Below are positions 1,960 through 45,088 of a stretch of DNA of 64,000 nt, piece by piece. A program made the position numbers and the translations under genes. Under the pieces are notes generated by a model, which was not told where the DNA came from, did not search any database, and was given only the letters and a program-made list of their open reading frames with translations. Every line of letters begins with the position of its first letter. The first letter of the stretch is position 1. Source of the DNA: Christensenellales bacterium. Lineage in GTDB: Bacteria > Bacillota > Clostridia > Christensenellales > UBA3700. The stretch spans positions 64,833-128,832 of the forward strand of contig JBJETT010000012.1 of assembly GCA_051883455.1 (NCBI GenBank), given 5' to 3'.

Positions 1960-2345
1960 AACCGTGGCAATCTCAAGTGCTTTGTCATTGCGAAGCCGTT
2001 AGGCTGTGGCAATCTCAACCGTATATAAGCCTCCTTTGTGCAAAGGGAGGTGTCTCACGGCGTATATACTTCGCAATACAGTGTCGAGTTTGCGGTTTTG
2101 TATCGGTCACATACGTTTTGACGGCGAATATACTACGCAATACAGTGTCGAGTTTGCGGTAGCTTATCGGTCACATACGATATAGTATGCTCCCTCACGC
2201 TATCCTCACTCTCCTTGTCTTGCTTGTATCTACACCGTCAAAATAATATAGTATGCTCCCTCACGCCGTCCTCACTCTCCTTGTCTTGCTCGTATCTCCA
2301 CCGTGAGCGAGCCGCTTAAGCCGAGACGGAGGGAGTGCATACTAT
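1960..2345. repeat. intergenic repeat array A (host repeat family, mostly reverse orientation)
   Basis: Contains two GTGGCAATCTC / TTTGTCATTGCG hairpin units, the hairpin CCTCCTTTGTGCAAAGGGAGG (2030-2050), two MITE-like heads (CACGGCGTATATACTTCGCAATACAGTGTCGAGTTTGCGG) and two tail units (AGTATGCTCCCTCACGC...CTCCTTGTCTTGCT...CCACCGT). Confidence 0.9.
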
Positions 2346-2367
2346 TCTATCTTATTTCAAGTCGATA

Positions 2368-2396
2368 TTGACAATTTTTTTTGCATTATTTATAAT
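2368..2396 (+). promoter_or_regulatory. sigma-A type promoter upstream of the fucosidase gene
   Basis: TTGACA (2368-2373), a 17-nt spacer, then TATAAT (2391-2396), 33 nt before the ATG at 2429. Confidence 0.6.
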
Positions 2397-2428
2397 GAAA
2401 CCAAAGTAATCAACGAGGCAGGCGAATT

Positions 2429-3814
2429 ATGACAGAGCAAGAGAAATTAGAGTTTTACACTTCGATAGTGCCCAGACCCAACCAACTCATCGTTCAAGAT
2501 ATGAAGTTTTACGCTTTCGTACACTATACCGTCAACACCTTCACAGACAAAGAGTGGGGTGACGGCACCGAGAGTGAGCAAGTATTCAACCCTACGGCGC
2601 AAGACACCGACCAATGGTGCAAGGCTATTGCGGGCGCGGGCATGAAAGGACTCATTCTCACGTGCAAGCACCACGACGGTTTTTGCTTGTGGCGCACCAA
2701 GACGACGGAGCACTGCATCTCCAACAGCCCTTACAAGGACGGCAAGGGCGACGTGGTGGCGGAAGTTGCCGAGAGCTGTCGCAAGTACGGCCTAAAGTTC
2801 GGCGTCTATCTCTCGCCTTGGGATAGGAATAGCAAGTACTATTCCACCGATGCCTACAACGATTTTTACGTAGAGCAGCTCACGGAACTACTCACTAATT
2901 ACGGCGATATATTTATGCTGTGGCTCGACGGCGCATGCGCCAGCGACGCCGACGGCAAACCCAAGCAAATCTACGACTTCGAGCGTATTTACGCCACGGC
3001 GTACAAGTTGCAACCTAATATTTGCATATCCGTTACGGGACCCGATATCAGGTGGGTAGGCAATGAGTCGGGCAAATGTCGCAAGAGCGAGTGGAACGTA
3101 GTGCCTTATATCGACCACAACCAAAATCAAGACACCTCCGACCAACAGACCGATGCCGACTATAAGAAGTTCCAGAAAAAAGCCGTGAATGCAATGCAAG
3201 CCGACCTTGGTAGCAGAGCCGCTCTCGAGGGTTACGACAAGCTCATGTGGTATCCCGCCGAGGTGGACGTATCTATCCGCAAGGGCTGGTTTTGGCACAA
3301 GTCGGAGGATAGATTTGGAGTCAAATCGCTCCGTAGACTTATGACTATCTATTACAATTCCGTAGGTGCCAACGGCTTGTACTTGCTCAATATTCCGCCA
3401 ACAAGTGAGGGCAAAATTGCCGACAAAGACGTGCAAAGACTCGCCGAGATGGGCTATTGGATAGACAAGGAAAAGTCGCTCATGCTACCGCCTTCTTCCG
3501 TCCAAACTACCGAGATAAGCAAGACGGATAGGGGCTACGAATTCGATATAACTTTCCCTTGCGAAGTCGTGGATAGAATAAGAATGGAAGAAGACCTCTC
3601 CTTTAGCCAAAGGATAGAGAACTTTACGATATACGCCGTCAACGCCAAAGGCAAAGAAAAGAAGCTCTACCGAGGCACGGTGGTAGGCTTCGGTAGGATA
3701 GCAATATTCCGCAAGACTAAGTGCGACCGCCTACGCGTCGTAATCAACGAATGCCGTCTCGAGCCGCATATCGAGATAGTAGAAGCGTACAAAAAGGGCG
3801 GGTACAGACTTTGA
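2429..3814 (+). CDS. alpha-L-fucosidase, glycoside hydrolase family 29
   Basis: 461-aa ORF with GH29-type motifs: KHHDGFCLW, GVYLSPWDRN and MLWLDGA. No obvious signal peptide. Confidence 0.85.
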   Translation: MTEQEKLEFYTSIVPRPNQLIVQDMKFYAFVHYTVNTFTDKEWGDGTESEQVFNPTAQDTDQWCKAIAGAGMKGLILTCKHHDGFCLWRTKTTEHCISNSPYKDGKGDVVAEVAESCRKYGLKFGVYLSPWDRNSKYYSTDAYNDFYVEQLTELLTNYGDIFMLWLDGACASDADGKPKQIYDFERIYATAYKLQPNICISVTGPDIRWVGNESGKCRKSEWNVVPYIDHNQNQDTSDQQTDADYKKFQKKAVNAMQADLGSRAALEGYDKLMWYPAEVDVSIRKGWFWHKSEDRFGVKSLRRLMTIYYNSVGANGLYLLNIPPTSEGKIADKDVQRLAEMGYWIDKEKSLMLPPSSVQTTEISKTDRGYEFDITFPCEVVDRIRMEEDLSFSQRIENFTIYAVNAKGKEKKLYRGTVVGFGRIAIFRKTKCDRLRVVINECRLEPHIEIVEAYKKGGYRL

Positions 3815-4038
3815 TTAGTATCGCCAATCTATATCTACGTGCGGTTGCCCGATGAGACGAAGTTGCGGGCGGTAGCATTTATAATCAAAATAACTTGTAC
3901 AAAAGGTATAATTGTGCTAAACTAAAATACGATAGTATTTTGTCAAGGTGGCGAAGAGTTTGATAGACGCTTCCGCTTTTCCAAATATATCGGGCACGGC
4001 GAAATCAATAACGCCAAAGCAAGTGAGGTCAGCAATAT

Positions 4039-10130: not shown

Positions 10131-10133
10131 GAT

Positions 10134-12781: not shown

Positions 12782-13879
12782 ATGAACAAGTATGATTATT
12801 TGATAGTAGGGGCAGGACTTTACGGAGCCGTCTTTGCTCACGAGATGACCAAGAGGGGCAAAAAGTGCTTGGTCGTAGACAAGCGTGACCATATCGCGGG
12901 CAATATTTATTGTGATAAGTGCGAGGGAATTACCGTGCACCGTTACGGCGCGCATATTTTCCATACTTCCAACAAGGCGGTGTGGGAGTGGGTAAATCAG
13001 TTTGCCGAGTTCAATCGCTACACCAACTGTCCTATAGCCAACTATAGGGGCAAACTATACCATTTGCCTTTCAATATGGACACCTTTTACGCTATGTGGG
13101 GAGTGGTTACTCCTCAACAAGCGAGGGCAATCGTCGACGAGCAAGTGGCTCGCGAAAATATTACCGACCCGCAAAACCTCGAAGAAAAGGCACTGTCTTT
13201 GGTTGGTAGAGATATTTACGAGACTCTCGTCAAGGGCTATACCGAGAAGCAGTGGGGCAAAAAGGCAACCCAACTTCCCGCCTTTATTATACAGAGATTG
13301 CCGCTTCGCTTCAACTACGACAACAACTACTTCAATGCCAAGTATCAGGGCATACCTATAGGCGGATATACCCAAATGGTAAGCAATATGTTGCAAGGTA
13401 TAGAGGTTAGGCTTAATTGCGACTACCTCGCTCATAGGGAACAACTCGATGCCCTCGCCGACAAAGTGTTGTACACGGGCGAGATAGACAGACTATTCGA
13501 CTATTGCTACGGCGCGCTCGAGTATCGCTCTCTCAATTTCGAGACGGAGGTCCTCGACCAAGACAACTATCAAGGCGTTGCCGTAATGAACTATACCGAC
13601 AGAGACGTGCCGTATACCCGTATCATCGAGCACAAGCACTTTGACAACGAGCAGTCCGCCAAAACCGTCGTTACGCGCGAGTACCCAGCCGATTGGGATG
13701 TCGACAAAGAGCCTTATTATCCAATCAACAATTCCCGCAACGACCAATTATATCGTAAGTACTACGATTTGGCTTGCCAAAATCCTCGCCTCATAGTCGG
13801 AGGACGGCTTGGCAATTATAAGTATTTTGATATGGATAGGACTATTGAGGAGGCGCTTGCTCTTGCCTCCACCCTTTGA
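12782..13879 (+). CDS. glf: UDP-galactopyranose mutase
   Basis: YDYLIVGAGLYGAVFA FAD motif, HRYGAHIFHT and YPINN motifs. The stop TGA lies inside the first TTTGAC of repeat array B. Confidence 0.9.
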   Translation: MNKYDYLIVGAGLYGAVFAHEMTKRGKKCLVVDKRDHIAGNIYCDKCEGITVHRYGAHIFHTSNKAVWEWVNQFAEFNRYTNCPIANYRGKLYHLPFNMDTFYAMWGVVTPQQARAIVDEQVARENITDPQNLEEKALSLVGRDIYETLVKGYTEKQWGKKATQLPAFIIQRLPLRFNYDNNYFNAKYQGIPIGGYTQMVSNMLQGIEVRLNCDYLAHREQLDALADKVLYTGEIDRLFDYCYGALEYRSLNFETEVLDQDNYQGVAVMNYTDRDVPYTRIIEHKHFDNEQSAKTVVTREYPADWDVDKEPYYPINNSRNDQLYRKYYDLACQNPRLIVGGRLGNYKYFDMDRTIEEALALASTL

Positions 13880-14555
13880 CTTTTGACGGCGGATATACTT
13901 CGTTATACTGTGTCGAGTTTGCGGGTGCGTTCAGTCACGTACGCCCTAGTACGCTCCCTCACGCCGTCCTCACTCTCCTTGTCTAACTCGCATCTCCACC
14001 GTCAAAAAATAGTATGCTCCTATCGCCCAATCCGCACTTTCCTTGTCTAACTCGCATCTCCACCGTCAAAAAATAGTATGCTCCTGTCGCAAAAACTCCG
14101 CTCTTCGCGTCTTACTCGCACCTATGCCGTCAAAGTATATAGCGGATATACTGTGTCGTGCTTAGTCACGTACGCTTAGTACGCTCCTATCGCCCAATCC
14201 GCACTTTCCTTGTCTTGCTTGCATCTACGCACCCAAAGAAAACTGCAAACTCGCACCTATGCCGTCAAAGTATATAGCGGATATACTTCGCAATACTGTG
14301 TCAAAGGGCAATTTTTCTTGCTCACGTACGCAATAGTATGCTCGCTTCGATAAAATCATCGCTTTCCTCGCCTAACTCGCACCTATGCCGCGAGAGGGTA
14401 GTAATATCAACTAATAACAAGAGGCAACGATAAAGTTGCCTTTTTCCTTGTCTTGCTCGCATCTACGCATCCAAAAGTGCTTTGTCATTGCGCTGTGCAC
14501 ATTTTGCGTTATCAAAGACGTAGGCACTTGTTGCCGAAGTGTGGCAATCTCAATC
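13874..14555. repeat. intergenic repeat array B (MITE-like units with tandemly amplified ~60-bp tail sub-units, one GAGATT unit)
   Basis: Begins TTTGACTTTTGACGGCGGATATACTTCGTTATACTGTGTCGAGTTTGCGG. The tail unit TAGTAYGCTCC...CCTTGTCTAACTCGCATCTCCACCGTCAAA recurs at about 13949, 14010, 14073, 14178 and 14334. It ends with a reversed long GAGATTGCCAC...CGCAATGACAAAG unit (14478-14551). Confidence 0.9.
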
Positions 14556-14560: not shown

Positions 14561-14587
14561 AAAAAACTCGATACGTATCGAGTTTTT
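14561..14587. terminator. recurrent palindrome, bidirectional terminator-like (AAAAAACTCGATACGTATCGAGTTTTT)
   Basis: Perfect hairpin flanked by A-run and T-run, 28 nt past the stop of the convergent DUF1846 gene. Confidence 0.65.
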
Positions 14588-27772: not shown

Positions 27773-27864
27773 AAAGTCGATACATATCGACAAAAAAGAT
27801 TCCTTTTGAAATATAAGGGAGTCTTTTTTTTACAAAGAGTGTAAACGTTTTTATTATATTTAGA

Positions 27865-28392: not shown

Positions 28393-28415
28393 CACCCAAA
28401 AGAATACTATAAACT

Positions 28416-29078: not shown

Positions 29079-29139
29079 CAAGTCATAAATTTTCAACAAG
29101 TTTTATCTTGCGACAAGTCAAAAGCCTTATGCTAATGGC

Positions 29140-31975: not shown

Positions 31976-32075
31976 TAGAGCGTAATCGTCCGCCACTTTT
32001 AGTCGAGATAGGTCGGGAAAAAGTCGGGAGAAAATTGTTGTTGATTTATAAGTCTACTTATATTATAATTTATTT

Positions 32076-33377
32076 GTGATAGACCCTACGATTGTAAAAA
32101 AACTCCAAAAATTCAACTGTTTGGCATTGGCAGTAAGCGGGGGCAAGGACTCTACCTTCTTGCTCAACTATTGGGTGGAAAACCGTGCAATTTTGCCCGA
32201 CTTTTTCGTGGTCAACGTCGACCACAACCTTAGAGGCGAGGAGAGCAAGGCCGATAGCGATTTCGTTAGGAAACTTTGCAAAGAACTTGGCGTAGAGTGC
32301 AAGTGCTACGACGAGGATATCAAGGGCTATTGCAATAGGGGCGGATATGGCTTGGAGCAAGGGGCAAGGCTTAGACGGCGAGAGATTTTTGCCGAGGTAG
32401 TCACGACCACTAGAGCCGAGAGAGTGGTGACGGCGCATCACAAGGACGACCAATGCGAAAGCGTGCTTATGCACGTCTTTAGAGGTAGCGGAATCAACGG
32501 CTTGAAGGGTATGCCTTTTGACGACGGACTTATCTTAAGACCGCTGTTGAATATATCTAGCGACGAGATTGAGAGAGAGATGAAAAGACGGGGTTGGGAA
32601 TACAGAGTGGATAGTTCCAACCTCTCTACCGACTACACTCGCAACAAGTTGAGGGGTGAGATAATACCTACGATAAAACAAGTCTATCCGAGCGTGGTGG
32701 ACAACGTATTGAGATTGGCGAGCATTGCCGAAGATACGCAAAGTTTTATTGATAAGTTTTTGGTGCGCGCCGAGTGGAACGGCGAAGAATTGTCGTTGCC
32801 CGAAAACCTCGCAGAGTGCGACGACGCGGTGGCAACGGCTTCGATTTTCGATGGATTGCAACGAGCGGGTTGGCGTGTGGATATAGAGAAAAAGCACGTG
32901 CAAGCAATAAGGCGGTTGTATGATAAAAAACCACCTTCAAGAGTATCTTTGCCTAGCTCACTTGTGGCTTGGAGAGAGAGAAACGGCGTGGTGATTGCCA
33001 AAGAGCACCGGCAAAAAGACCAAAGATACGAGGTGGACTACGGCTCATACGTTATGGGAGATTGGATAGTCACATTGTCTAAAGAGTATAGTGAGGGCGC
33101 GCTTAGAGCCGATATGGACGAATTGAAAAAAGGCGTATTGAGATATCGTCAAAAGGGCGACAAAATATGCAAGTTTGGCGGTGGAAGCAAGAGTTTGGGA
33201 GACTATCTAACAGACAAAAAAGTGCCTCTCAGATTACGTGACGGGTTAGCCGTAATAGCGAGAGATAGCGACGTGCTGGCAGTGATAGGAGTGGATATAT
33301 CGTCTAAAGTGGCGGTAAGAGAAGATACGAAAGAAATATGTTATCTTAGCGTAAGCAAAAATACGGGAGAAAAATAA
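32076..33377 (+). CDS. tilS: tRNA(Ile)-lysidine synthase
   Basis: PP-loop LAVSGGKDSTFLL, HHKDDQ, GTG start. Sits directly upstream of hpt as in Bacillus. Confidence 0.85.
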   Translation: MIDPTIVKKLQKFNCLALAVSGGKDSTFLLNYWVENRAILPDFFVVNVDHNLRGEESKADSDFVRKLCKELGVECKCYDEDIKGYCNRGGYGLEQGARLRRREIFAEVVTTTRAERVVTAHHKDDQCESVLMHVFRGSGINGLKGMPFDDGLILRPLLNISSDEIEREMKRRGWEYRVDSSNLSTDYTRNKLRGEIIPTIKQVYPSVVDNVLRLASIAEDTQSFIDKFLVRAEWNGEELSLPENLAECDDAVATASIFDGLQRAGWRVDIEKKHVQAIRRLYDKKPPSRVSLPSSLVAWRERNGVVIAKEHRQKDQRYEVDYGSYVMGDWIVTLSKEYSEGALRADMDELKKGVLRYRQKGDKICKFGGGSKSLGDYLTDKKVPLRLRDGLAVIARDSDVLAVIGVDISSKVAVREDTKEICYLSVSKNTGEK

Positions 33378-33901
33378 TGGAAAGAATAGAAAAAGTGCTG
33401 ATTACCAAAGAGCAAATACAAGAAAGAGTCAAACAAATGGGCGAGCAAATTACCAAGGACTACGAGGGCAAAGCGCCTTATATGGTGTGCATACTCAAGG
33501 GCTCGATAGTCTTTTTTGCCGACCTTATACGAAACGTCGATTTGCCCGTGGTGGTGGACACAATGGTGGTGTCGAGCTATGGCAATTCTACCATATCGAG
33601 CGGTAACGTGAGAGTTAAAAAAGACCTTGCCGAGGATATAGCGGGCAGGGACGTCATAGTCGTGGAAGATATTATCGACAGCGGTCATACTTTGAACGCT
33701 CTGACCAAACTGCTGAGAGATAGAAACCCTGCCTCGCTCAAGGTAGTGACTTTCCTAGACAAGCCAAGCAGACGAAAAGTGGAATTCCAAGGCGACTACG
33801 TTGGCTTTGAAGTGCCTGACGAATTCGTCATAGGATACGGATTGGACTACAACGAAAGATACCGCAACTTGCCTTACGTGGGCGTGTTGAGCCTAGACTG
33901 A
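33377..33901 (+). CDS. hpt: hypoxanthine phosphoribosyltransferase
   Basis: VCILKGSIVFFADLIR and VIVVEDIIDSGHTL (PRPP-binding motif). Confidence 0.9.
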   Translation: MERIEKVLITKEQIQERVKQMGEQITKDYEGKAPYMVCILKGSIVFFADLIRNVDLPVVVDTMVVSSYGNSTISSGNVRVKKDLAEDIAGRDVIVVEDIIDSGHTLNALTKLLRDRNPASLKVVTFLDKPSRRKVEFQGDYVGFEVPDEFVIGYGLDYNERYRNLPYVGVLSLD

Positions 33902-33908
33902 GGACAGC

Positions 33909-35285
33909 GTGAAAAGGGTCGTCGAAGAAGAACTTAAGGCTTTGGCAAGTCTATTCCCGCCCACAAGGCCGTTGTATCTCGTGGGAGGTAGAGTGCGTGA
34001 CTGTATCGTGCGAGATATGGAATTGAGTCAAACCGACGCCGATATTTGTTCGGCTATTGCTTACGACGACTTTATAAAACTAGTGCAAACGGCGGGACTG
34101 CAGATTGAGAGCTGTAGCGAAAAGCTTGGTACGGCGTGGGTCAAAGGAAGAGAGGGCAGATACGAATACGCCACCTTTCGCAAGGACAGTTACCCCGTAT
34201 CAAAGGGCGACCACCTACCCGACAAGGTAGAATTTGTCTACGAGATAGAGCAAGACTGTCTTAGACGCGACTTTAGATGCAACGCCTTGTATTACGATAT
34301 AGTGGCGGGCAAAGTGATAGATCCGTTGAACGGCAAAAAGGACATAGACGAAGGGATTTTGTCCACCGTGCGTGATCCGAATTTGGTTTTTTGCGAGGAC
34401 GGACTCAGAATCCTCAGACTTTTCCGCTTTTGCTCGACGCTGGGATTTGGGATACAAGAGGACACTTTGCAAGGTGCGATAAGGCACGCTAGCAACCTCA
34501 AGGATATCAAGTCGGAGAGAATTGCCGTCGAGATAAAGAGATTGTTGGAGGGAAACAACGCGGGGCGTGCCTTGATAGGCACGGTAGAGTCGGGCGCAAT
34601 GAGATACGTCCTACAAAGAGTGGATGAGAGTTGTCAAATAAAAGACGGCGGAAGACTGTCAGTAGGCATAGATTATACGCCTAAGAGATTGAGAATAGTA
34701 ACTATGCTCGAAAATCTTGTTGAGATAGAAGAGGGGTGGACGAGCAAGGATACAAGCAACTTGATAGAAACGTGCGAAAGCTCAAAGATAGAGCAAAACG
34801 AGTCGGGAAGGACAGGAAAGTTTAGCCTTATCAAAAAGGCGGAACAGCTGGCAACCAAATGGAAAGAAACCTATCCGCAGAGTATGGAAAAGGGCTTGAG
34901 ATTGACGGCTTTGACCCGAGGCGTAGCGGCGTGCAAGCACGCAAGCAACGAAAATGAGGTCAAAAAAGTGTCCGTAGAGTATGCGAGCGAGATAGAGGAT
35001 ATATCGAGCGTTTTGCTCGCAATGGGCAACGACGGCGACGAGCGCGCGCAACTTGCCTACGAAAGACAAAGCGTATGGTTGAATAGAGTAAAAGAAAAAG
35101 AAATTCCGCTATCGGTTAAGAGCCTTGCCGTGAGCGGCGAGGATATGAAAGAATGCGGATATAGGGGCGCGGAAATAAGAGCCGTGCTCGAGAGATTGAG
35201 AGACCTATGCGTAGAAGAAGAAATATCGGGAGCAAGAGAAATCTTGCTATCAAAAGCTAAGGAGTGGAGAAGAAACGATGGATAA
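33909..35285 (+). CDS. CCA tRNA nucleotidyltransferase / poly(A) polymerase family protein
   Basis: LYLVGGRVRDCIV head-domain motif and RRDFRCNALYYD. GTG start. Confidence 0.75.
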   Translation: MKRVVEEELKALASLFPPTRPLYLVGGRVRDCIVRDMELSQTDADICSAIAYDDFIKLVQTAGLQIESCSEKLGTAWVKGREGRYEYATFRKDSYPVSKGDHLPDKVEFVYEIEQDCLRRDFRCNALYYDIVAGKVIDPLNGKKDIDEGILSTVRDPNLVFCEDGLRILRLFRFCSTLGFGIQEDTLQGAIRHASNLKDIKSERIAVEIKRLLEGNNAGRALIGTVESGAMRYVLQRVDESCQIKDGGRLSVGIDYTPKRLRIVTMLENLVEIEEGWTSKDTSNLIETCESSKIEQNESGRTGKFSLIKKAEQLATKWKETYPQSMEKGLRLTALTRGVAACKHASNENEVKKVSVEYASEIEDISSVLLAMGNDGDERAQLAYERQSVWLNRVKEKEIPLSVKSLAVSGEDMKECGYRGAEIRAVLERLRDLCVEEEISGAREILLSKAKEWRRNDG

Positions 35286-36633
35286 AGTGATTTTGGTATT
35301 GTCGATATTGTGCGCCTTGCTGTCGGCGGGCGTGTTGATATTCGTCATAGTGACGAGCGTCAAAGACAAAAAGAAAGAGCAAGACAGTAGCGGATACGAC
35401 GACGTGATAGACGCGTTGGGCGAAGCCGTGGGTATGGTCAAGGAAAATCAAGAAAACACCGCCAAAAACAGTAGAGAACATATCGTCAGCAATATCAATA
35501 CCGCCAACAACACCCTCAACGCTTTGCTCAAGACGTATATGGATAACTTTGCAAGGCAGATTGACGATATCAATATCAATCTAAGAAATTCGCTGAGCGA
35601 GATGAAGACGGAACTCAAGGCCTCTCTCGCCGAGATGAAGACGGAACTCAAACAGAGTATCGGCGAACTCAAAACCGAAGTGGGCGAGAGTATGACGGGG
35701 CTTAGAAAGGATAACGAAACTCAACTGGAAAAGATGAGAGAGACGGTGGACGAAAAGCTCTCCAGTACCTTGGAAAAGAGAGTCAACGCCGCCTTTGAAA
35801 TGGTCAATAGCCGTCTTGATGCAGTGCAAAAGGGCTTTGGCGAGATGCAAAGTCTATCGGAGAAGGTGACCAACCTCAACAAGTCGTTTAGCAATATCAA
35901 GACGAGAGGAAGCTGGGGTGAGGTGGCTCTTAATAGTTTGCTAGAACAAATGCTCGCTCCCGAACAGTACAAGTCGCAGTTTAATATCAAAGGAAAAAAC
36001 ATGGTGGACTTTGCTATCGTTATGCCGGGACAAGCGGGGGATAAGGTGTATTTGCCCGTGGACGCCAAGTTCCCGGTTGAAGACTATAACCGCCTTGTAG
36101 ACGCTACCGAAAGGGGCGATATGGTCGAGATAGAAAAGGAGCGTAAGCAACTCAAATTGCGTATAAAAGAAGAGGCAAAATCCGTAAAAGAAAAGTATAT
36201 CGTTCCACCAACGACGACCAACTTCGCCATAATCTATCTGCCAAGCGAGGGACTCTACGCCGAAGTCGTTAAGGACAGCGAACTTTGCAACGAGTTGCAA
36301 GTCAAGTACAATATCACCGTATGCGGTCCTAGCACTATTGCGGCGCTTCTCAATAGTTTACAAATGGGCTTTACCACACTCAAAATCCAAAAGAAGAGTG
36401 CGGAAGTGGTAAAACTTATGCTTGGATTTAAGAAGGACTTTGGCAAGTTTACCGAAGCAGTCGTCAAAGCGAGAGATAAGGCAAATAGTACCGTCAAAGA
36501 GCTGGACGGCATAGACAAGAGAACGGAGATTATCCAAAGAAAACTCGACAAAGTGGACGACATTGCGGGAGAATATCTGGATAAGAGTGAAGAAGCGCCT
36601 GCGATAGAGGGAGATACGATAGATGAAGTATGA
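35278..36633 (+). CDS. rmuC: DNA recombination protein RmuC
   Basis: N-terminal TM segment, long coiled coil, and an RmuC nuclease-like core (RGSWGEVALNSLLEQ...VDFAIVMPG...LPVDAKFP). Confidence 0.85.
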   Translation: MDKVILVLSILCALLSAGVLIFVIVTSVKDKKKEQDSSGYDDVIDALGEAVGMVKENQENTAKNSREHIVSNINTANNTLNALLKTYMDNFARQIDDININLRNSLSEMKTELKASLAEMKTELKQSIGELKTEVGESMTGLRKDNETQLEKMRETVDEKLSSTLEKRVNAAFEMVNSRLDAVQKGFGEMQSLSEKVTNLNKSFSNIKTRGSWGEVALNSLLEQMLAPEQYKSQFNIKGKNMVDFAIVMPGQAGDKVYLPVDAKFPVEDYNRLVDATERGDMVEIEKERKQLKLRIKEEAKSVKEKYIVPPTTTNFAIIYLPSEGLYAEVVKDSELCNELQVKYNITVCGPSTIAALLNSLQMGFTTLKIQKKSAEVVKLMLGFKKDFGKFTEAVVKARDKANSTVKELDGIDKRTEIIQRKLDKVDDIAGEYLDKSEEAPAIEGDTIDEV

Positions 36634-37438
36634 TTTGCATATACATTCCGTGTACAGCGACGGAACCGATACCCCTACACAAATCGTGCAAAAAGCCAAA
36701 GAAAAGGGCTTGAACGCTATTGCTTTGACCGACCACGATACCTTGGACGGCTTGGCGGAATTGAAGAAAGTTGCCAAAGTAGAGGGTATTCAGACGGTGG
36801 ACGGAGTGGAGTTGTCCACCTATTCTACCTCCGAAGTGCATATCCTCGGCTACAACGTCGACGTCGAAAGCGACGTTTTGTTGACGGCACTTGCCGATTT
36901 TGCAGAGCGTAGAGAGGAAAGGATAAAGAATATCTTGGTCAAGCTATCTAAGTACAATATCAACCTCGACTACGATAGCGTGGCTAGCGTTGCAGTGGGT
37001 GCTATCGGTCGAATGCACGTGGCTAAAGAGTTGATAAATAAAGGATACTGCGCCTCGGTGTACGAAGCCTTTGAAAGATATCTGGGCGCAAACGGCGTGG
37101 CGTATATTCCGTCCAAGAGAATTACTCCTATGGAAGGGGTAAAACTCATCAAACGCAGTAAGGGCTTGGCTGTGCTTGCGCACCCGTTGAGATTTATATC
37201 GGCAGGTAGATTTAACGACTTCGTGTACGGACTAAAGCCTTTTGGACTAGACGGCGTAGAGGGATATTATCCTACCCACGACGAAAAGACGATAAGGACG
37301 ATAGTGGACATAGCTAAGCAAAATCGCTTGATAGTGACGGGAGGAACCGACTACCACGGCGAAAATAAAAACGTGGAGCTAGGAAGCGTGGACGTCAAGC
37401 TCGACGAAAAAACTAAGAGAGCCTTGAAAATAAAATAA
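36623..37438 (+). CDS. PHP-domain phosphoesterase (TrpH/YciV-like)
   Basis: YDLHIHSVYSDGTDTP...ALTDHDT...GGTDYHG. Confidence 0.8.
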   Translation: MKYDLHIHSVYSDGTDTPTQIVQKAKEKGLNAIALTDHDTLDGLAELKKVAKVEGIQTVDGVELSTYSTSEVHILGYNVDVESDVLLTALADFAERREERIKNILVKLSKYNINLDYDSVASVAVGAIGRMHVAKELINKGYCASVYEAFERYLGANGVAYIPSKRITPMEGVKLIKRSKGLAVLAHPLRFISAGRFNDFVYGLKPFGLDGVEGYYPTHDEKTIRTIVDIAKQNRLIVTGGTDYHGENKNVELGSVDVKLDEKTKRALKIK

Positions 37439-37459
37439 ATAATTACTCATAATAGACTT

Positions 37460-38503
37460 GTGAGGCAAATAAATAAGTCGACAAGTCTAATAAAGATTAC
37501 GGCAGTCCTATTGACGATAGGTCTGCTTTTTGTATTGCTTTCGGTGGATTTTGGTCGGACGGTAACACCTACCTTGGCAACGGACATACAAGTCGTCGAT
37601 AGTAGCGCGACGGGAAAAACAGAGCAAGTCAAGGAAGACAAAACCTGCCGCCTACGTCAACGAAACCTATCGGACGTAGACGTCCAACGGGTGAGCAAAG
37701 ATGAAAAATATATTAGCAAAAAACTCGTCAAAATTGACTTGGAGCAAGACGGAGAAATTGAGAGGTTGGTGGGCAATTTTAGCCCAAAAACTCAAAACAT
37801 ATCGACATTTTCTACTTCTTTCGCTACTTCTTCCGCGGGACGAATACACAATATAACTTTGGCTACGGGCAACTTTAGTTGGTTGGTGGTCAAGGCGGGC
37901 GAAAAACTAAGCTTTAACACTATCGTGGGAGCAAGAACCGAAGAACGAGGTTACGCCAACGCCAAGGTAATATTGTGGGGTGAATACGTGGACGGCGTGG
38001 GCGGCGGCGTGTGTCAAGTGTCTACTACGCTATACAACGCTTGGATAAGAGCGGGTTTGGGCACGGAACAAGTCGTCAATCACTCGCTGCCGTCGTCGTA
38101 TTGCGAATTGAGTCAAGACGCCACCGTAAGCGAATATACCGATATGATACTTGTCAACGATAGCGGTTACGACGTGGTGGTCAACGGCAAAGTAATAGAC
38201 AAGACGGTAACCTTTTGGATATACGGCGCTCCTACCGAATATACCTATAAGATAGAGAGTACTCTCTTGGAAGTTTTGCCTCCCACCGCCCCCGAAGTGG
38301 TGTACAGCGCAACACTCGAGGGTATGGGCGAGATTAGAGAGGACGGAGAAGGGCAATACGTGGTGCTAAGACAAGAGAAAAACGGATTTCGCTCGCAGGC
38401 CGTTCGCAAAAAGTTCAAAGACGGCGTGGAAGTGGAAAGCAGATTGTTGAGGGTAGACACTTACAAGCCGAGCCGTGGAAAAATATGCGTCAAACGCCCG
38501 TAA
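37460..38503 (+). CDS. VanW-family protein
   Basis: N-terminal TM segment and the GGGVCQVSTTLYNA VanW motif. GTG start. Confidence 0.8.
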   Translation: MRQINKSTSLIKITAVLLTIGLLFVLLSVDFGRTVTPTLATDIQVVDSSATGKTEQVKEDKTCRLRQRNLSDVDVQRVSKDEKYISKKLVKIDLEQDGEIERLVGNFSPKTQNISTFSTSFATSSAGRIHNITLATGNFSWLVVKAGEKLSFNTIVGARTEERGYANAKVILWGEYVDGVGGGVCQVSTTLYNAWIRAGLGTEQVVNHSLPSSYCELSQDATVSEYTDMILVNDSGYDVVVNGKVIDKTVTFWIYGAPTEYTYKIESTLLEVLPPTAPEVVYSATLEGMGEIREDGEGQYVVLRQEKNGFRSQAVRKKFKDGVEVESRLLRVDTYKPSRGKICVKRP

Positions 38504-38558
38504 ATGTATTGAAAAAACATCGCGGGCATGTTATAATCTTGATATTGAGGTGAAGGAT

Positions 38559-40301
38559 ATGAACTATCAAGAAAATTACAATTATTGGAAAAACAACGTT
38601 GAAGAAAAGTATCAAGCCGAGATGATATCTATCGGCGGTGACGAAAAGGAAACCAAGGAGAGATTTACTCTGCCACTCGCCTTTGGTACTGCCGGCATGC
38701 GCGGTACTATCGGCATGGGTATAAGCAATATGAACGTCTATACCGTGGCAAGAGCAAGCCTCGGACTTGCCAAGTACATACTCAGTCTTGGCAAAAAGCA
38801 AGCCGAGATGGGTGTCATCGTATCTTACGATACTCGTAGAATGTCCTTTGAGTTTGCTTTGACGACTGCAAGAGTGCTGGCTAAGTGCGGCGTAAAGGTT
38901 AGACTGTTTGAGAACGTTAGACCTGTGCCAATGTGCTCATTTGCAGTAAGACACCTCGGTTGTATCGCGGGCGTTATGATTACCGCCAGCCACAACCCGA
39001 AAGAGTACAACGGATATAAAGTTTACGGCGACGACGGCGCGCAAATGTCGCCTGAGGCCACCAAAAAAGTGGTGGAATATATCGACCAAGCAGACTACTT
39101 CGGCATAGATTTGCAAGACGTCAAGACGACAAACCACGACGATATCAAGGGCAAGGACAACTACGAACTCGGCGAAAATATCACCGTGGTGGGAGCAAGC
39201 GCGGACAACGCTTATTACGATACTATCGAGAAGTTGGGACTATCTCCCGACTCGGTAAAGAGAGTGGGCAAGGATATAAAAATCGTGTATAGCCCTATCC
39301 ACGGCTCGGGTTGGATACCCGTGACTACGATACTTGCAAGAATGGGTATCGAGGTCAACGTGGTAGAAGAACAAAAATACCCCGATACCGAATTTAGAAC
39401 GGTGAGCGTGCCTAACCCCGAGCAAAGCGAGGCGCTTAGTATGGGTATACAACTCGCCGACAAGCTGGGTAGCGATATCGTCATCGGTACAGACCCCGAC
39501 TGCGACAGAATGGGCGCGGCAGTGAGGGACGACCAAGGAAAGTTCGTACTGCTCAACGGCAACCAAATAGGCGCAATGCTGATGAATTACATTTTGTCAA
39601 GACGAGAGGAGGAGGGCAATATGCCGTCCAATCCTGCCGTAGTCAAGACTATCGTAACCACTAGCCTTGCCGATAGAATTGCTCGCAGCTACGGCGTGAG
39701 AGTGTACGACGTGTTGACGGGATTTAAGTTTATAGGCGAAAAGATTAAGGAGTGGGAAACGAGTGGAGAGAGCACTTTCTTGTTCGGCTACGAGGAGAGC
39801 TACGGTTATCTCTCGGGCACTCACGCAAGAGATAAGGACGCCGTGGTGGCAAGTATGCTCTTTGCCGAGATGGTGTGCTACTACACCGACAAGGGCGTAA
39901 AAGTGTATGACAAACTGATAGAGTTGTTTGAAAAATACGGTTACTTCGTAGAGAACAGTAAGTCGATTTTCTTCAAGGGTCTCGACGGTATGCAAAAGAT
40001 GGCGGATATTATGACTAAGTTCCGTCAAAGTGAATTGAAAGAGATCGCCGGCACAAAGGTTGTCAGTAAGACAGACCTCAACGTGGGCAAGAAGTATAAC
40101 TGCGACGGCACCGTCGACGACGTTGACCTACCTAAGACCAACGTGGTCAAGTGGGATTTGGGAAACGACGAGTGGGCGTGCGTAAGACCGAGCGGAACCG
40201 AGCCGAAACTCAAGATTTACGTGTCCACCAACGCGGGCGATAAGCAGACCGCTAGCGAGAAAAATCAAAAGATTATGACGGCAATATCAGAGATGATTTG
40301 A
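38559..40301 (+). CDS. phosphoglucomutase / phosphomannomutase (alpha-D-phosphohexomutase)
   Basis: Active-site TASHNPKEYNGYKVY and GTDPDCDR motifs. The start is moved to MNYQENY at 38559 (GAGGTG RBS) instead of 38475. Confidence 0.9.
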   Translation: MNYQENYNYWKNNVEEKYQAEMISIGGDEKETKERFTLPLAFGTAGMRGTIGMGISNMNVYTVARASLGLAKYILSLGKKQAEMGVIVSYDTRRMSFEFALTTARVLAKCGVKVRLFENVRPVPMCSFAVRHLGCIAGVMITASHNPKEYNGYKVYGDDGAQMSPEATKKVVEYIDQADYFGIDLQDVKTTNHDDIKGKDNYELGENITVVGASADNAYYDTIEKLGLSPDSVKRVGKDIKIVYSPIHGSGWIPVTTILARMGIEVNVVEEQKYPDTEFRTVSVPNPEQSEALSMGIQLADKLGSDIVIGTDPDCDRMGAAVRDDQGKFVLLNGNQIGAMLMNYILSRREEEGNMPSNPAVVKTIVTTSLADRIARSYGVRVYDVLTGFKFIGEKIKEWETSGESTFLFGYEESYGYLSGTHARDKDAVVASMLFAEMVCYYTDKGVKVYDKLIELFEKYGYFVENSKSIFFKGLDGMQKMADIMTKFRQSELKEIAGTKVVSKTDLNVGKKYNCDGTVDDVDLPKTNVVKWDLGNDEWACVRPSGTEPKLKIYVSTNAGDKQTASEKNQKIMTAISEMI

Positions 40302-40307
40302 TGAAAA

Positions 40308-40332
40308 AGACCGAACGACGTTCGGTCTTTTT
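40308..40332 (+). terminator. intrinsic terminator after the phosphoglucomutase gene
   Basis: GACCGAA-CGACG-TTCGGTC followed by TTTTTG. Confidence 0.8.
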
Positions 40333-40384
40333 GTTGGGGAAGGGAAAAGATATCCGTCTTTGCCCTATTATGGGAGTTGGGTCT

Positions 40385-40410
40385 AAAAAGTCGATACGTA
40401 TCGACTTTTT
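40385..40410. terminator. recurrent palindrome AAAAAGTCGATACGTATCGACTTTTT (consensus copy)
   Basis: Perfect 26-nt palindrome overlapping the stop codon of the convergent ferritin-like gene. Confidence 0.7.
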
Positions 40411-40918
40411 AGTATTGCGTTGGCTCTTGCGCGAGTGTGGAGAGCAAGTCTTGGAATATGGAGATATGCAACTCTTCGTCCATTATTATACGGGAGATGA
40501 GGTCTTTGAGCGAAGGGTTGGATACGCACTCGATAGTGCGACGATATTTGGCGATGGCTTGCCGTTCCGCCTCGATATTGGCACGAAGAATAGCGACGGG
40601 ATTTTTGATATAATTGACGTTGCTACCCGACCAAAAACACGTGCTTCCCGCAATGATAGGGTCGCCACCTGCCATTACGATTGCTTCACCGAGAAGTTCG
40701 TGATGGTGCATCTCCGTAATAGCAATGCCCATGAGAGCGTCACCTATCTCGGGATATTCCGTGTCCAATATGTAATGTTGGTATACGTATTGCATAACTG
40801 CCGTGGTTTCGCTCTTACGACCGCCGTAGTCGTCAACAAGACAGCGGACTTCTTTGGGAGATAGATAGCCCGTAAGCTCGGGATAAGGTAGTGATAATGC
40901 GTATTGTTGGGTATTCAT
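40409..40918 (-). CDS. ferritin-like / manganese-catalase-family (CotJC-like) protein
   Basis: 169 aa. ETTAVMQYVYQHY, EMHHHELLGE and ERQAIAKY...DEELH resemble a di-iron four-helix bundle. Confidence 0.6.
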   Translation of the reverse strand: MNTQQYALSLPYPELTGYLSPKEVRCLVDDYGGRKSETTAVMQYVYQHYILDTEYPEIGDALMGIAITEMHHHELLGEAIVMAGGDPIIAGSTCFWSGSNVNYIKNPVAILRANIEAERQAIAKYRRTIECVSNPSLKDLISRIIMDEELHISIFQDLLSTLAQEPTQY

Positions 40919-40977
40919 AATATGCTCCTTAGATTGGTCTAGAGTATTGTATTCGGGTGGGGCGTTTTCTGTTACTC

Positions 40978-41212
40978 TTTGACGGCATAGCTACGTCGCA
41001 ATACTATGTCGAGTTTGTGAAGTATATGTGCCGTGAGGCACCTCCTTTACACAAAGGCTAACAATCCCCCACCCGACTTTCGTCGGGAGCCCCCTTTGCA
41101 CAAAGGGGCCTTTTTATAAGGATGATATTCCCACGCCTTACGGCTCGGAATGACATAACTACTTGAGATTGCCAAAGCATCGGGCGCAATGGCAAACATA
41201 GGAATTGCGGGC
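40978..41212. repeat. intergenic repeat array F
   Basis: A MITE-like head followed by its own inverted copy (40981-41037). A double hairpin with CCCGAC-TTTC-GTCGGG then CCCCCTTTGCACAAAGGGG (41071-41108). Two GAGATT-type units. Confidence 0.85.
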
Positions 41213-41664: not shown

Positions 41665-41753
41665 CGAAATCTAGAAATCGAGTTCCCTTGCTGCAATAGG
41701 CAAGGGAATTTTTTTGACCTAATTGGAAGGTAATATTGCAATGGGGCGGCAAG

Positions 41754-42045
41754 CAATCCCTCCGTCTTGCCTTTCGGCAAGCCACCTCCCTTTGCACAAA
41801 GGAGGCTAAAAGTAGAGATTGCCGCGGCTAAAGCCTTTGCTAACGCAAAATGTACACAGCGCAATGACATAAAGCGGTTGAGATTGCCACACTTCGTTCG
41901 CAATGACATATAGCTTAGATTCCCACGCTTAACGGCTTTACTAACGCAAAATGCACTGGGCGGAATGACAGAAAACACGAGATTCCCATGCCTGACGGCT
42001 CGGAATGACACATTACTTGGTTTAGGCGCCACCGCAATGAAAACA
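41754..42045. repeat. intergenic repeat array G
   Basis: A double hairpin (CTTGCC-TTTC-GGCAAG then CCTCCCTTTGCACAAAGGAGG, 41754-41805) followed by four GAGATT(G/C)CC...AATGACA units, two of them the long CTTTGCTAACGCAAAATG variant. Confidence 0.9.
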
Positions 42046-42635: not shown

Positions 42636-42645
42636 GGAGATGCAT

Positions 42646-43914
42646 ATGAAGATAGATACCAATTGCGTACAAGGCGGATATAGCCCAAAGAACGGCGAAG
42701 CGAGAGTTTTGCCTATTTATCAAAGCACGACCTTTGCTTACGACACGCCCGAGCAACTCGCAGACGTGTTTGACCTCAAAGACCCGGGATTTATGTACAC
42801 CCGTCTTGGCAATCCAACCGTCAATTATTTTGAAGACAAAATCGCATTGCTCGAAGGCGGTGTGGGCGCGCTTGCTACCTCGTCGGGACAAGCTGCCGCA
42901 CTGCTTGCAATTCTCAACGTGTGCAACGCAGGCGACAATATAGTAGCCGTCAACAAAATCTACGGCGGAACCTTCAACCTGCTCAACGTTACGTTGAGAA
43001 GGTCGGGCATAGAAACGCGTTTCGTAGATCCCGACGCCGACGCGGACGAGATAGAAAAACTCATTGACGATAAGACCAAGGTCATCTTTGGCGAAACCGT
43101 TGCCAACCCTGCAATGACGATTTTTGACTTTGACAAGTTTGCCGCAATCGCCAAGAAGTACGGCATTTTGCTCTACGTCGACAATACCCTTGCCACGCCT
43201 ATCTTGTGTAGACCTTTGGAACTAGGCGCCAACGTCGTGCTTCACTCTACCACTAAGTATATTGACGGACACGCTTGTTGTGTGGGCGGTATTATCGTAG
43301 ACGGAGGCAACTTTGACTTCGTGGGCAATCCTCGCTATCCGATGTTCAACGAGCCCGACGCAAGTTATCACGGAATGGTGTACACCAGAGATTGCGGTAA
43401 CAAGGCTTTCGTAGTCAAGGCGAGAGTGCAACTATTGAGAGACCTCGGCACGACTATGAGTCCGTTCAACGCCTTTTTGACCAATATGGGAGCGGAAACT
43501 CTGCACCTCAGAATGGAAAAACACAGCGCCAACGCGCTCGCCGTTGCCAAGGCTCTTGTGAACAACCCTAAGATAGAAGAGGTGAGATACAACGGATTGG
43601 AGAGCGATCCGAGCTATGAGCGTAGTTGCAAATACTACCTCGGAAGAGGCTTCGGCGGAATGATGACCTTTTGCGTCAAGGGCGGTAGGGAAGCCGCAAA
43701 TAAGGTGATGAAAAACCTCAAACTTGCCAAAATCGTCACCCACGTTGCCGATGCAAGAACTTGCGTGCTTCACCCAGCAAGTACCACACATAGACAACTC
43801 ACCGACGAACAGTTGGTGGCTTGCGGTATCAAGGACAACCTAATCAGACTCTCGGTGGGTATCGAGGACGCCGAGGACATCATTGCCGACCTCGAACAAG
43901 CACTCAACGCTTAA
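42646..43914 (+). CDS. metY: O-acetylhomoserine aminocarboxypropyltransferase (sulfhydrylase), PLP-dependent
   Basis: PIYQSTTF, the HSTTKYIDGH PLP-lysine motif and LSVGIED. The start is moved to MKIDTNCVQGG at 42646 (AAGGAGA RBS). Confidence 0.85.
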   Translation: MKIDTNCVQGGYSPKNGEARVLPIYQSTTFAYDTPEQLADVFDLKDPGFMYTRLGNPTVNYFEDKIALLEGGVGALATSSGQAAALLAILNVCNAGDNIVAVNKIYGGTFNLLNVTLRRSGIETRFVDPDADADEIEKLIDDKTKVIFGETVANPAMTIFDFDKFAAIAKKYGILLYVDNTLATPILCRPLELGANVVLHSTTKYIDGHACCVGGIIVDGGNFDFVGNPRYPMFNEPDASYHGMVYTRDCGNKAFVVKARVQLLRDLGTTMSPFNAFLTNMGAETLHLRMEKHSANALAVAKALVNNPKIEEVRYNGLESDPSYERSCKYYLGRGFGGMMTFCVKGGREAANKVMKNLKLAKIVTHVADARTCVLHPASTTHRQLTDEQLVACGIKDNLIRLSVGIEDAEDIIADLEQALNA

Positions 43915-43938
43915 AATACGACCACAAAGGAGAAAAAT

Positions 43939-44874
43939 ATGCCGATAGTTATTCCTAAATCACTGCCTGCGTTTCAAATACTGACCAAGGAAAGGATTTT
44001 CGTTATGCCTCAAGCGAGGGCAATCAAACAGGATATCAGACCTATCCGTATTGCCATCGTCAATTTGATGCCGACCAAAATCGATACCGAAACGCAACTT
44101 ATGCGATTGCTAGGCAATTCTCCTCTGCAAATAGAAGTCACTTTGGTGGCTATGGATAGCTATACCTCGCGCCATACCCCTCTCGAGCATATGGAAAAGT
44201 TCTATAAGACCTTCGACCAAATCAAGGATACCAAGTTCGACGGCATGATTATCACCGGCGCGCCCGTGGAACAAATGGCATTCGAAGAAGTGGCGTATTG
44301 GAAAGAGTTGACGAGAATAATGGATTTTTGCGAGAGCAACGTTACCTCGACTATTTATATTTGTTGGGGCGCACAAGCGGGCTTGTACTACCACTATGGC
44401 ATCAACAAGCACAACCTCGACAAAAAGCTATTTGGCGTGTGCAGTAACGTCAGTTGCGACACTAAGGAACTTTTGCTCAAAGGTATGGACGATACTATAT
44501 ATATCCCAATGTCAAGGCATACCGCCGTGGACGACCAAGCCATTGCCGCCAACCCCGACCTCGTGCCTCTCGCTTACGGCGACGACTGCGGTTATAGCAT
44601 CATCAAGTCTAAGGATAACCGCAAGTTTTTCTTGATGGGACACAGCGAGTACGATAGAGAAACCTTGCGCAACGAGTACCTCAGAGATAAAGAAAAGGGC
44701 TTGGATATCGAGCAACCTTTCAACTACTTCGTCGGCAGAGATATCAACAAAATCGACATGAAATGGAAGTCTACCGCCAACCTGTTGTTCTATAATTGGC
44801 TTAATTATTACGTATATCAAGTTACGCCATACGATTTGACGGCGGATATGCGTCGCGATACTGTGTCGAACTAG
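43939..44874 (+). CDS. metA: homoserine O-acyltransferase (MetA family). The last 13 codons are encoded by a repeat element.
   Basis: IRIAIVNLMPTKIDTETQ and GAPVE...ICWGAQA motifs. The conserved NYYVYQVTPYDL end runs into the TTGACGGCGGATATGCG repeat head at 44836. Confidence 0.85.
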   Translation: MPIVIPKSLPAFQILTKERIFVMPQARAIKQDIRPIRIAIVNLMPTKIDTETQLMRLLGNSPLQIEVTLVAMDSYTSRHTPLEHMEKFYKTFDQIKDTKFDGMIITGAPVEQMAFEEVAYWKELTRIMDFCESNVTSTIYICWGAQAGLYYHYGINKHNLDKKLFGVCSNVSCDTKELLLKGMDDTIYIPMSRHTAVDDQAIAANPDLVPLAYGDDCGYSIIKSKDNRKFFLMGHSEYDRETLRNEYLRDKEKGLDIEQPFNYFVGRDINKIDMKWKSTANLLFYNWLNYYVYQVTPYDLTADMRRDTVSN

Positions 44875-45088
44875 CATTTTTGTTTGGTCACATACAAGGA
44901 GTATGCTCCCTGCACAAAAGCCGCGTTCTCCTTGTCTCGCTCGCATCTCCACCGTCAAATGTGGAGGATAGCGGATATGCGACGTTAGGCTTTGTCAAGC
45001 GGCAATTTTTCTTGCTCACGTACGCCTAGTACGCTCGCTTCGATAAAATCACCGCTTTTCGCGCCTAACTCGCATCTTCACCGTAAAA
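44836..45088. repeat. intergenic repeat array H (two MITE-like units)
   Basis: Head-plus-tail units at 44836-44960 and 44968-45088, matching arrays B and E. Confidence 0.9.

Follow-up and report, generated by a model that had tools for sequence, protein, structure and literature searches.

Intergenic hairpin arrays of a Christensenellales genome as mosaics of unrelated structured repeat families

A 64,000-nt stretch of a metagenome-assembled Christensenellales genome from pig gut (GenBank assembly GCA_051883455.1, contig JBJETT010000012.1, positions 64,833 to 128,832 of the forward strand), referred to as the window, contains eight intergenic regions (1960-2345, 13874-14555, 22265-22770, 27865-28392, 31408-31975, 40978-41212, 41754-42045 and 44836-45088) that are occupied by four kinds of short hairpin-forming repeats (modules 1 to 4). 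The locus raises the question of whether these repeats are the parts of one host-specific system, as had been proposed from the letters of the DNA without database searches (the sequence-only reading), or unrelated elements that share the same sites. The analysis described here identified the regions as mosaics of four unrelated hairpin families and not as one host-specific system. Probably, at least four such strand-specific families have piled up, and rearrange, in intergenic sites that tolerate them, with module 3 belonging to the Ssn-related motifs (SRMs), module 1 constituting a separate element and module 4 being terminator-like.

The window, part of a contig of 174,647 bp, encodes proteins MGN0766008-MGN0766033 and has a GC content of ~45-48%, with a GC skew that is positive on the + strand until ~46 kb. 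The host is a spore-former (SpoIIE gene at 29140-31407). A tmRNA gene (45357-45699) is followed by an integrated mobilisable element; the portion before the tmRNA gene is called the host part and the stretch from 45.7 to 64 kb the island. By sequence reading, a repeat-family search and a pattern map, the four modules were found in all eight regions at the above coordinates, and the repeat-family search assigned them to multi-copy families restricted to these regions. The strict module 3 pattern gave 12 exact matches in the window and the module 2 pattern seven, compared with 0.00 in shuffled sequences in both cases, while a covariance model of module 1 gave seven matches with E values from 1e-8 down to 1e-34. 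The motif cores by themselves account for 44-98% of the length of each region. In total, the regions comprise 3,450 bp (~7.6% of the first 45 kb) and lie in divergent, convergent and tandem gene contexts, so that the small vocabulary of modules, the extent (~3.4 kb, ~7.5 percent of the host part) and the variety of contexts reported in the sequence-only reading were all borne out. Outside the regions, three additional module 4 palindromes and a few partial matches at chance level were present, and the pattern map revealed no module in the island. The arrays in the eight regions are therefore confirmed as real, dense, modular and hairpin-based. They do not constitute a CRISPR array, because their units abut or are 8-12 nt apart, the variable part is a hairpin within the unit, and the sole regular period (137 bp) arises from a composite unit that has been duplicated in tandem. 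When the whole window was scanned against Rfam, the tmRNA alone passed the gathering threshold, and none of the modules was matched at E<=10.

Module 3 (GAGATTSCCAC-hairpin-SAATGACA) is the most abundant module and the one with a described counterpart. On its complementary strand, hereafter the NTS-sense strand, it reads TGTCATT(G/C)CGAG, a variable inner hairpin and GTGG(C/G)AATCTC. The stem is bipartite: 5 bp of ATTSC/GSAAT are separated by a GAG/GTG internal loop from the variable inner hairpin, which spans 5-35 nt. The two S positions form a covarying base pair (ATTG/CAAT or ATTC/GAAT). The Neisseria NTS, which contains dRS3, has been given as CGTCATTCCCGCGMAVGCGGGAATCYRG (Chenal et al., Nat Commun 2025, PMC11893778). 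SRMs, as defined in the same study, are hairpins that, as single-stranded DNA, are bound by SsnA, a GIY-YIG nuclease of 94 aa which cuts just upstream of the motif and does not act on double-stranded DNA, RNA or the reverse strand; they were found near 71% of the ssnA homologues and on both sides of 42% of them, and the NTS-ssnA-NTS arrangement was likened by its authors to an insertion sequence and to the REP/RAYT/BIME systems (PMC11893778). With NTS written as CGTCATTCCC...GGGAATCYRG and the reverse complement of module 3 as TGTCATT(G/C)C...G(C/G)AATCTC, the two share the frame GTCATT(C/G)C...G(G/C)AATC around a hairpin, and the reverse complement also fits the oriented SRM frame, i.e. (H)GTC(A/T)(C/T) before and AATC(Y) after the hairpin. 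Further likenesses to NTS/dRS3/SRM and Ssn are an orientation set by the non-palindromic flanks and the clustering in intergenic regions. The differences are the bipartite stem, the arrangement in same-orientation arrays mixed with other modules, and the Gram-positive, spore-forming host.

To determine the distribution of module 3, the pattern GAGATTSCCAC-N5-35-SAATGACA was scanned against one genome per bacterial species (596 Gb). By our arithmetic, several hundred chance matches are conceivable in a data set of this size, and single matches therefore needed checking. The pattern was present in at least 119 genome stretches across bacteria. Among the matches listed, to which the following hosts and counts refer, the frame occurred in at least 15 phyla, including Dehalococcoidia/Chloroflexota, Mucilaginibacter and other Bacteroidota, Gamma- and Deltaproteobacteria (Pseudomonadota), Nitrospirota, Acidobacteriota, Atribacterota, Elusimicrobiota, several lineages of the candidate phyla radiation (CPR), Rickettsiales, and many metagenome-assembled genomes of Oscillospiraceae, Faecousia and Christensenellales. 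Conservation extended beyond the pattern itself, with a G after CCAC in 104 and a TCG before CAATGACA in 113 of the 127 unique copies, and the S/S pair was complementary in 157/160 copies. The NTS-sense strand was the better folder in 122 of the 127 copies and carried 120 G.T/G.U pairs, compared with 19 on the other strand. Such an asymmetry is expected where one DNA strand is the substrate.

In other genomes, module 3 was also found on both sides, in inverted orientation, of a gene for a single-domain GIY-YIG protein (PF01541) of ~96 aa, as in locus L009, where a 98-aa GIY-YIG gene lies between two inverted copies. Six of the seven separate ssn loci were ordered NTS-sense copy, ssn, M3-sense copy, with the former 25-65 nt before the ssn start and the latter 18-40 nt past the stop. 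Both copies were present in L009, L131, L139, L199/200, L202 and the CPR Falkowbacteria locus L018, and the downstream copy only in L201. The Ssn-like proteins were unnamed in an NCBIfam search. A YhbQ probe for GIY-YIG genes matched L009 alone, and jackhmmer added L018. Clustering of the open reading frames (ORFs) in the 119 listed loci by blastp revealed no gene that universally adjoins module 3, and most copies were solo. Module 3 is therefore classed as an SRM-type element of a subtype outside the published string and as a candidate, not a proven, Ssn substrate in this genome. This bipartite subtype, present here as same-orientation arrays in a Gram-positive genome, is new. The statement of the sequence-only reading that the modules match no described family consequently stands with respect to Rfam, which holds none of them, but not for module 3, which resembles NTS/dRS3.

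In four gut Clostridia lineages (L131, L199-L202; one Ruminococcaceae, one Oscillospiraceae and two metagenome contigs), ssn is located directly upstream of gyrA, with gyrB on the other side in three of them, and three alternating SRM pairs lie in front of the gene in L131. Such a fixed and possibly domesticated ssn site would parallel single-copy RAYTs. In the Falkowbacteria locus (L018:2514-3019), the ssn frame is split by a palindromic insert of ~160 bp (about 2700-2860) and is still flanked by SRMs. Translation of module 3 in the NTS sense yields strings such as SLRGAKRRGNL, VIARSEATWQS and HCEERSDVAIS, and that of the other strand ...LAMT and ...ARND (e.g. 28356-28386). These strings presumably recur in 'hypothetical proteins' of many phyla; if they do, module 3 probably gives rise to spurious gene calls on a wide scale.

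Module 1 is a single imperfect hairpin. The sequence-only reading had described a ~120-bp unit with inverted termini; the unit stands, but its length is ~125-130 nt, its ends (TTTGACGG...CCGTCAAA) are replaced by CTCACGG...CCGTGAG in some copies, and in the window it occurs in full, half, nested (2054-2307), tandem and once in inverted (28030-28158) form. One strand folds with -53 to -58 kcal/mol (z about -7) and the other with -34 to -51 kcal/mol. The inverted copy brings this asymmetry along with it, so that the asymmetry belongs to the element and not to the chromosome strand, and a mutational strand bias was ruled out as its cause. A metagenome scan with the core GNAGATRCRAGYNAGACAAGGAR yielded module 1 in 44 of the 49 loci returned, from gut and other sources, with a GC content of 41-61%. 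One of these hosts is close to Candidatus Coproplasma stercoripullorum and another is a Clostridia bacterium. Neither module 3 nor an ssn homologue was found in the module 1 metagenome loci. Conversely, module 1 was absent from ~100 module 3 loci (669 kb) of other taxa, except for L029, which derives from another Christensenellales species. In an alignment of 40 sequences with 32 pairs (A2), 95.4% of the cells were paired, compared with 76% in shuffles and 23-45% when the partners were slid, and compensatory changes were observed at 25 of the 32 pairs, in 251 cells. One G.U pair was kept in 30/40 sequences. The internal-loop core is conserved, whereas the terminal stem varies freely but covaries. 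Stem covariation, a further claim of the sequence-only reading, is hence verified for both modules 1 and 3. When searched alone, module 1 had no match in Rfam.

The placement of module 1 follows a simple rule. Of 30 metagenome copies, 27 had an oppositely oriented gene 3' of the structured strand, and in 21 of these 27 the gene end was 0-27 nt away; the element thus starts immediately behind a stop codon, and its better-folding strand is antisense to the gene that ends there. The same placement was found in the window, where the stop at 13879 is followed by module 1 at 13882 and the stop at 31407 by module 1 at 31415, and where another copy overlaps the end of gene 43939-44874. Many metagenome copies are flanked by an A run and a T run. 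We conclude that module 1 is a structured element in its own right, widespread in Christensenellales-like Clostridia and, so far as is apparent, not described before. A candidate ORF of ~400 aa beside module 1 proved to be an antisense frame of a CobW gene.

Two further observations concern individual copies of module 1. The homoserine O-acyltransferase gene at 43939-44874 encodes 311 aa here and 306 aa in relatives; because module 1 overlaps its 3' end (44835-44874), the repeat supplies a new C-terminus. Moreover, the junction between tandem copies is stereotyped (CCGTCAAA-N6-9-TAGCGGATAT; 14131-14150, 14254-14282, 31532-31556, 44952-44978), with the second copy always lacking the GACGG terminus, which may point to a regular site of insertion or recombination.

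Module 2 is a double hairpin, whose better-folding strand reads AAGG-CTCCC-TTGTGTAA-AGGGAG-CTGTC, a variable hairpin and GAC-TGAGGGATTG. Three stem types that covary are present in the second hairpin, as the alignment shows by eye; the counts of covariation apply to modules 1 and 3. Module 2 was also detected in Faecousia, on the Coproplasma-like contig beside module 1, and in other Clostridia. A T run follows some copies, which score as terminator-like, and is missing from several module 2b copies. In the window, L029 and L121, module 2b abuts module 1 ends of the CTCACGG type. Modules 1 and 2 are two candidate new structured repeat families that are missing from Rfam. Module 4 is an A5-GTCGATACGTATCGAC-T5 palindrome with five to six copies in the host part and was found in this lineage only. 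Its copies lie 3' of genes, between convergent genes and immediately in front of the tmRNA gene. The copies at 27771-27796, 40385-40410 and 45330-45355 are situated just outside the eight regions, and the latter two are kept at orthologous sites in relatives. A terminator scan highlighted 14562-14587 (both strands), 27776-27791, 28215-28232 and 27896-27910; the total number of terminator-like sites in the region showed no excess (23 compared with 19.6 in shuffles). Module 4 behaves like a stable bidirectional terminator or protein-binding site and not like a mobile unit.

The arrangement of the modules differs from region to region (strands given for module 1 are those of its better-folding strand; none is given for module 4). 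The first region contains, on the - strand, an orphan 5' box (1964-1974) and a copy of module 3 (1983-2016, M3 sense), a module 2b hairpin (CCTCCCTTTGCACAAAGGAGG; 2022-2056) that abuts a CTCACGG-type module 1 end, and a nested module 1 (2054-2307), in which a full copy (2115-2246; 126.6 bits) lies within the halves of another (2054-2117 and 2247-2307). The second region, likewise oriented on the - strand, starts with a full module 1 hairpin (13880-14010) 3 nt past the stop of gene 12782-13879, followed by two tandem half copies (14010-14135; model positions 4-65), an internally shortened copy (14135-14228), a copy of a divergent subfamily (14268-14399; 71 bits) with an extra fragment at 14443-14477, and a long, 69-nt form of module 3 (14483-14551), whose NTS sense is on the + strand (TGTCATTGCG...GTGGCAATCTC). 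Next to it, between convergent genes, lies a module 4 palindrome (A5-CTCGATACGTATCGAG-T5; 14562-14587) with the look of a bidirectional terminator. The third region is made up, on the + strand, of a module 2 double hairpin with a degenerate second copy (22299-22414), the tail of a first unit and two ~137-bp tandem units, each consisting of module 2, module 3 and a degenerate module 3 (22417-22768); the module 3 copies of this stretch are at 22417-22454, 22554-22591 and 22691-22728.

Directly past the stop of gene 27221-27772 lies a module 4 variant (27771-27796). The fourth region then comprises, all on the + strand, a module 2b-like hairpin (27885-27915) and module 3 (27929-27964; together 27885-27964), a module 2 (28005-28186; 2a box 28005-28013, 2b hairpin 28160-28186) that is split by the inverted module 1 (28030-28158; better-folding strand +, 99 bits), and a further module 2 (28184-28239) with three copies of module 3 behind it (28248-28285, 28296-28348 and 28356-28386; together 28184-28386). 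In the fifth region, a full module 1 (31413-31543, - strand) begins 8 nt past the SpoIIE stop (31407) and is followed by a partial second copy (31542-31583), a module 4 variant (31596-31621) and a + strand series (31704-31954) of module 2 (31704-31768), module 3 (31772-31800, 31842-31876 and 31885-31921) and degenerate module 3 (31922-31954). The perfect module 4 palindrome at 40385-40410, located between convergent genes and at the same site in relatives, precedes the sixth region (40979-41194, + strand), which is composed of a module 1 fragment (40979-41035), module 2b (41036-41060), module 2 (41060-41116) and two module 3 copies (41124-41155 and 41165-41194). The seventh (41751-42043, + strand) contains module 2 (41751-41815), four module 3 copies (41815-41869, 41880-41908, 41916-41970 and 41979-42010) and one more that is degenerate. 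The eighth (44833-45090, - strand) consists of module 1 twice in tandem (44833-44963 and 44967-45090), the first copy overlapping the 3' end of gene 43939-44874, and a module 4 variant (45330-45355), again at the same site in relatives, is found 2 nt upstream of the tmRNA gene.

The arrays vary between close relatives. Pig-gut relatives with 88-97% identity have the same gene order as the window, and their intergenic sites are again filled with modules, in other numbers and orders. Thus, the site at 40958-41184 holds 226 bp in the window and 94 bp of different modules in the relative L121, and the site at 44833-45090 holds two module 1 copies in the window and one, the second, in L121. After the SpoU-methylase gene (window 27221-27772; L121 2026-2571), the module 3 series differ. 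An ORF of 94 aa annotated between SpoIIE and TilS in relatives had no Pfam match, lies on module 3 repeats and was judged spurious. Short-read contigs of the same strain, 100% identical to the window, start or stop inside arrays (L001 covers 28258-31467, L127 covers 31907-41109 and L149 begins at 2268), as expected of repeats that are high-copy elsewhere in the genome. Confinement to this window, which the sequence-only reading had named as an argument against a genome-wide system, was accordingly not observed, as the contigs of the strain end within arrays and the modules occur in other genomes. With regard to strand, the strands on which modules 2 and 3 and most copies of module 1 fold better coincide, in the window, with the template strand of the flanking genes, which by GC skew is also the leading-strand template. 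A general rule for the orientation of module 3 to genes was not obtained: crude ORF calls gave 31 (-,-), 17 (+,+), 14 and 13 cases, L029 is a counter-example, and no conclusion was built on orientation.

Several results weigh against the explanation of the arrays by unrelated, piled-up families with module 3 as an SRM. The published SRM string (HGTCWYN(0-2)YYVSBRHN(0-5)WNVSBRGN(0-2)RNCYNB) had no match on either strand of the window. By inspection, the ssn-flanking copies in L009, L131 and L139 likewise fail it, owing to the GAG/GTG internal loop and the long inner hairpin. No ssn homologue was found within the 64-kb window, and the nuclease may be absent from this genome. For module 1, 303 kb of loci contained no autonomous version, neighbouring enzyme or clear target duplication, and none of the three was found for module 2 either. 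All module 2 and module 3 copies in the window are co-oriented with the nearest gene (7/7 regions for module 3), which could reflect a role at the RNA level. Finally, modules 2 and 3 share their polarity and a fixed order, so that they may not be fully independent in this lineage.

The main rival explanation is that the modules act chiefly as RNA, be it as terminators, as stabilisers of 3'-untranslated regions against exonucleases (a role proposed for REPs) or as small or antisense RNAs. This would fit module 4 and part of module 2, given the terminator-like hairpins followed by T runs, and is also possible for module 1 with its A-run and T-run flanks and its position immediately after stop codons; the co-orientation of module 3 with genes in the window as well as covariation and G.U pairs, which are classic RNA signatures, point in the same direction. 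However, where modules 1, 2 and 3 adjoin genes in the window, the strand on which they fold better runs antisense to those genes, so that a co-transcribed mRNA would carry the weaker form. In addition, Ssn does not bind RNA (PMC11893778), module 3 has no conserved orientation to genes in other genomes, no Rfam family matches and no conserved promoter was seen. For the modules as a whole, a predominant RNA role is regarded as unlikely. A single host-specific system, whose four parts are mobilised or used together, appears clearly less plausible. It draws on the co-location of the modules in the same eight regions, the invariant polarity and order of modules 2 and 3, the 137-bp tandem unit of module 2 and two module 3 units, and the abutment of module 2b on CTCACGG-type module 1 ends. 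Yet module 1 occurs without module 3 in 44 loci and module 3 without module 1 in ~100 loci of other phyla, the only module that flanks ssn is module 3, and the relative orientation of modules 1 and 3 varies within the window. Nor are modules 1, 2 and 3 host-specific, with module 3 spread across phyla, module 1 in 44/49 metagenome loci and module 2 in Faecousia and other Clostridia; only module 4 is lineage-restricted. The notion of a selfish hairpin element or of structured DNA sites in the sequence-only reading pointed in the right direction, although not as a single system.

A recombination site of an integron-like system, comparable to attC, would account for several properties of module 1, namely an imperfect hairpin of 110-130 nt (attC, 60-140 nt), a fold that is conserved while the stem sequence varies, a structured bottom strand that is antisense to the preceding ORF and begins directly 3' of it, and ends of the type AAC...GTT in some copies. 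It is nevertheless highly improbable, as RYYYAAC/GTTRRRY (R''/R') boxes in the attC arrangement are missing, no integron integrase was present in any locus examined, the preceding genes are core and syntenic (SpoIIE, tRNA synthetases, CobW, ABC transporters), and tandem, half and nested copies occur without intervening ORFs. Barely conceivable is a set of repetitive extragenic palindromes (REPs) and bacterial interspersed mosaic elements (BIMEs) mobilised by a RAYT, an IS200/IS605-like Y1 transposase. As in the REP/BIME/REPIN and RAYT systems of E. coli and Pseudomonas, short, strand-specific intergenic hairpins form mosaic arrays, gene-less copies far outnumber an enzyme gene that acts in trans and is flanked by its own repeats in relatives, and domestication is possible. 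Unlike in these systems, the flanked gene encodes a GIY-YIG nuclease (PF01541) and not an HUH/Y1 transposase, a 5' GTAG motif, as borne by the 20-40-bp REP palindromes, is absent and transposition by Ssn is putative; in addition, the host part of the window was found to encode no transposase at all. Module 1 also shares features with miniature inverted-repeat transposable elements such as the Correia elements of Neisseria, including a size of ~100-150 bp, terminal inverted repeats, many copies and insertion polymorphism among strains. In contrast to these, it is conserved at its internal core and not at its termini, its terminal stem covaries freely, and no target-site duplication or parent insertion sequence was found.

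The BOX repeats of pneumococci and the bcr repeats of the Bacillus cereus group are modular or structured intergenic repeats of Firmicutes that are restricted to a genus. They resemble the present arrays in their small modular vocabulary, their location near gene ends and their stable hairpins with compensatory changes, a likeness of description and not of sequence, whereas modules 1, 2 and 3 have a much wider range.

For the accumulation of unrelated hairpin families, which we prefer, we infer Ssn activity in this genome, a mobilisation mechanism and any host function as follows. The eight regions would be BIME-like 'junkyards', i.e. intergenic sites at which insertions are tolerated. SRM-type hairpins would form in single-stranded DNA only, where the ~96-aa GIY-YIG nuclease Ssn would bind the module 3 hairpin and nick a few bases upstream, as described in the literature (PMC11893778). 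An SRM-ssn-SRM segment could then act as a small insertion sequence-like unit, of which solo SRMs would be gene-less derivatives, comparable to REPs and RAYT, and this genome would possess, or once have possessed, an Ssn by which module 3 is maintained or spread. A further factor presumably recognises module 1 through its conserved internal loops, and the element would land, or survive, immediately after stop codons in one orientation. Growth and change of the arrays could result from nested or tandem insertion, beside or inside copies already present, and from recombination between copies. It is conceivable, if somewhat less so than the converse, that module 1, and perhaps module 2, represents an undescribed, widespread strand-specific class in gut Clostridia, implying an enzyme that recognises hairpins in single-stranded DNA or antisense RNAs at gene 3' ends, and, separately, that the bipartite 'GCAAT-type' SRM is perhaps the commonest Ssn target class across bacteria.

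These results tie the assembly-breaking repeats of an uncultured gut Firmicute to the known Ssn/SRM single-strand nuclease system, which has been proposed as a biotechnology tool. The arrays are a systematic cause of contig breaks in short-read assemblies of this lineage. Furthermore, a bipartite subtype that is very common, from CPR bacteria to Clostridia, escapes the published definition of SRMs. For module 1, a covariance model and a clear placement rule are available, and modules 1 and 2 are candidate new families with strong covariation.

Two minor features of the window lie outside the arrays. The ORF at 18886-20979, annotated by NCBI as 'phage baseplate protein', carries a 54-bp in-frame tandem repeat at 20260-20614, with five to six copies of 67-100% identity. 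Within 45357-64000, the island, a mobilisable element of lower GC content, comes directly after the tmRNA gene and is not at this site in relatives (L121). It encodes two large serine recombinases (45776-46861 and 46963-48651), a Mob_Pre relaxase (49195-50166) and a Rep protein (58436-59350), together with a resolvase, TetR and MerR regulators, an ABC pair and an HpaII-type methylase/endonuclease pair (60908-63158).

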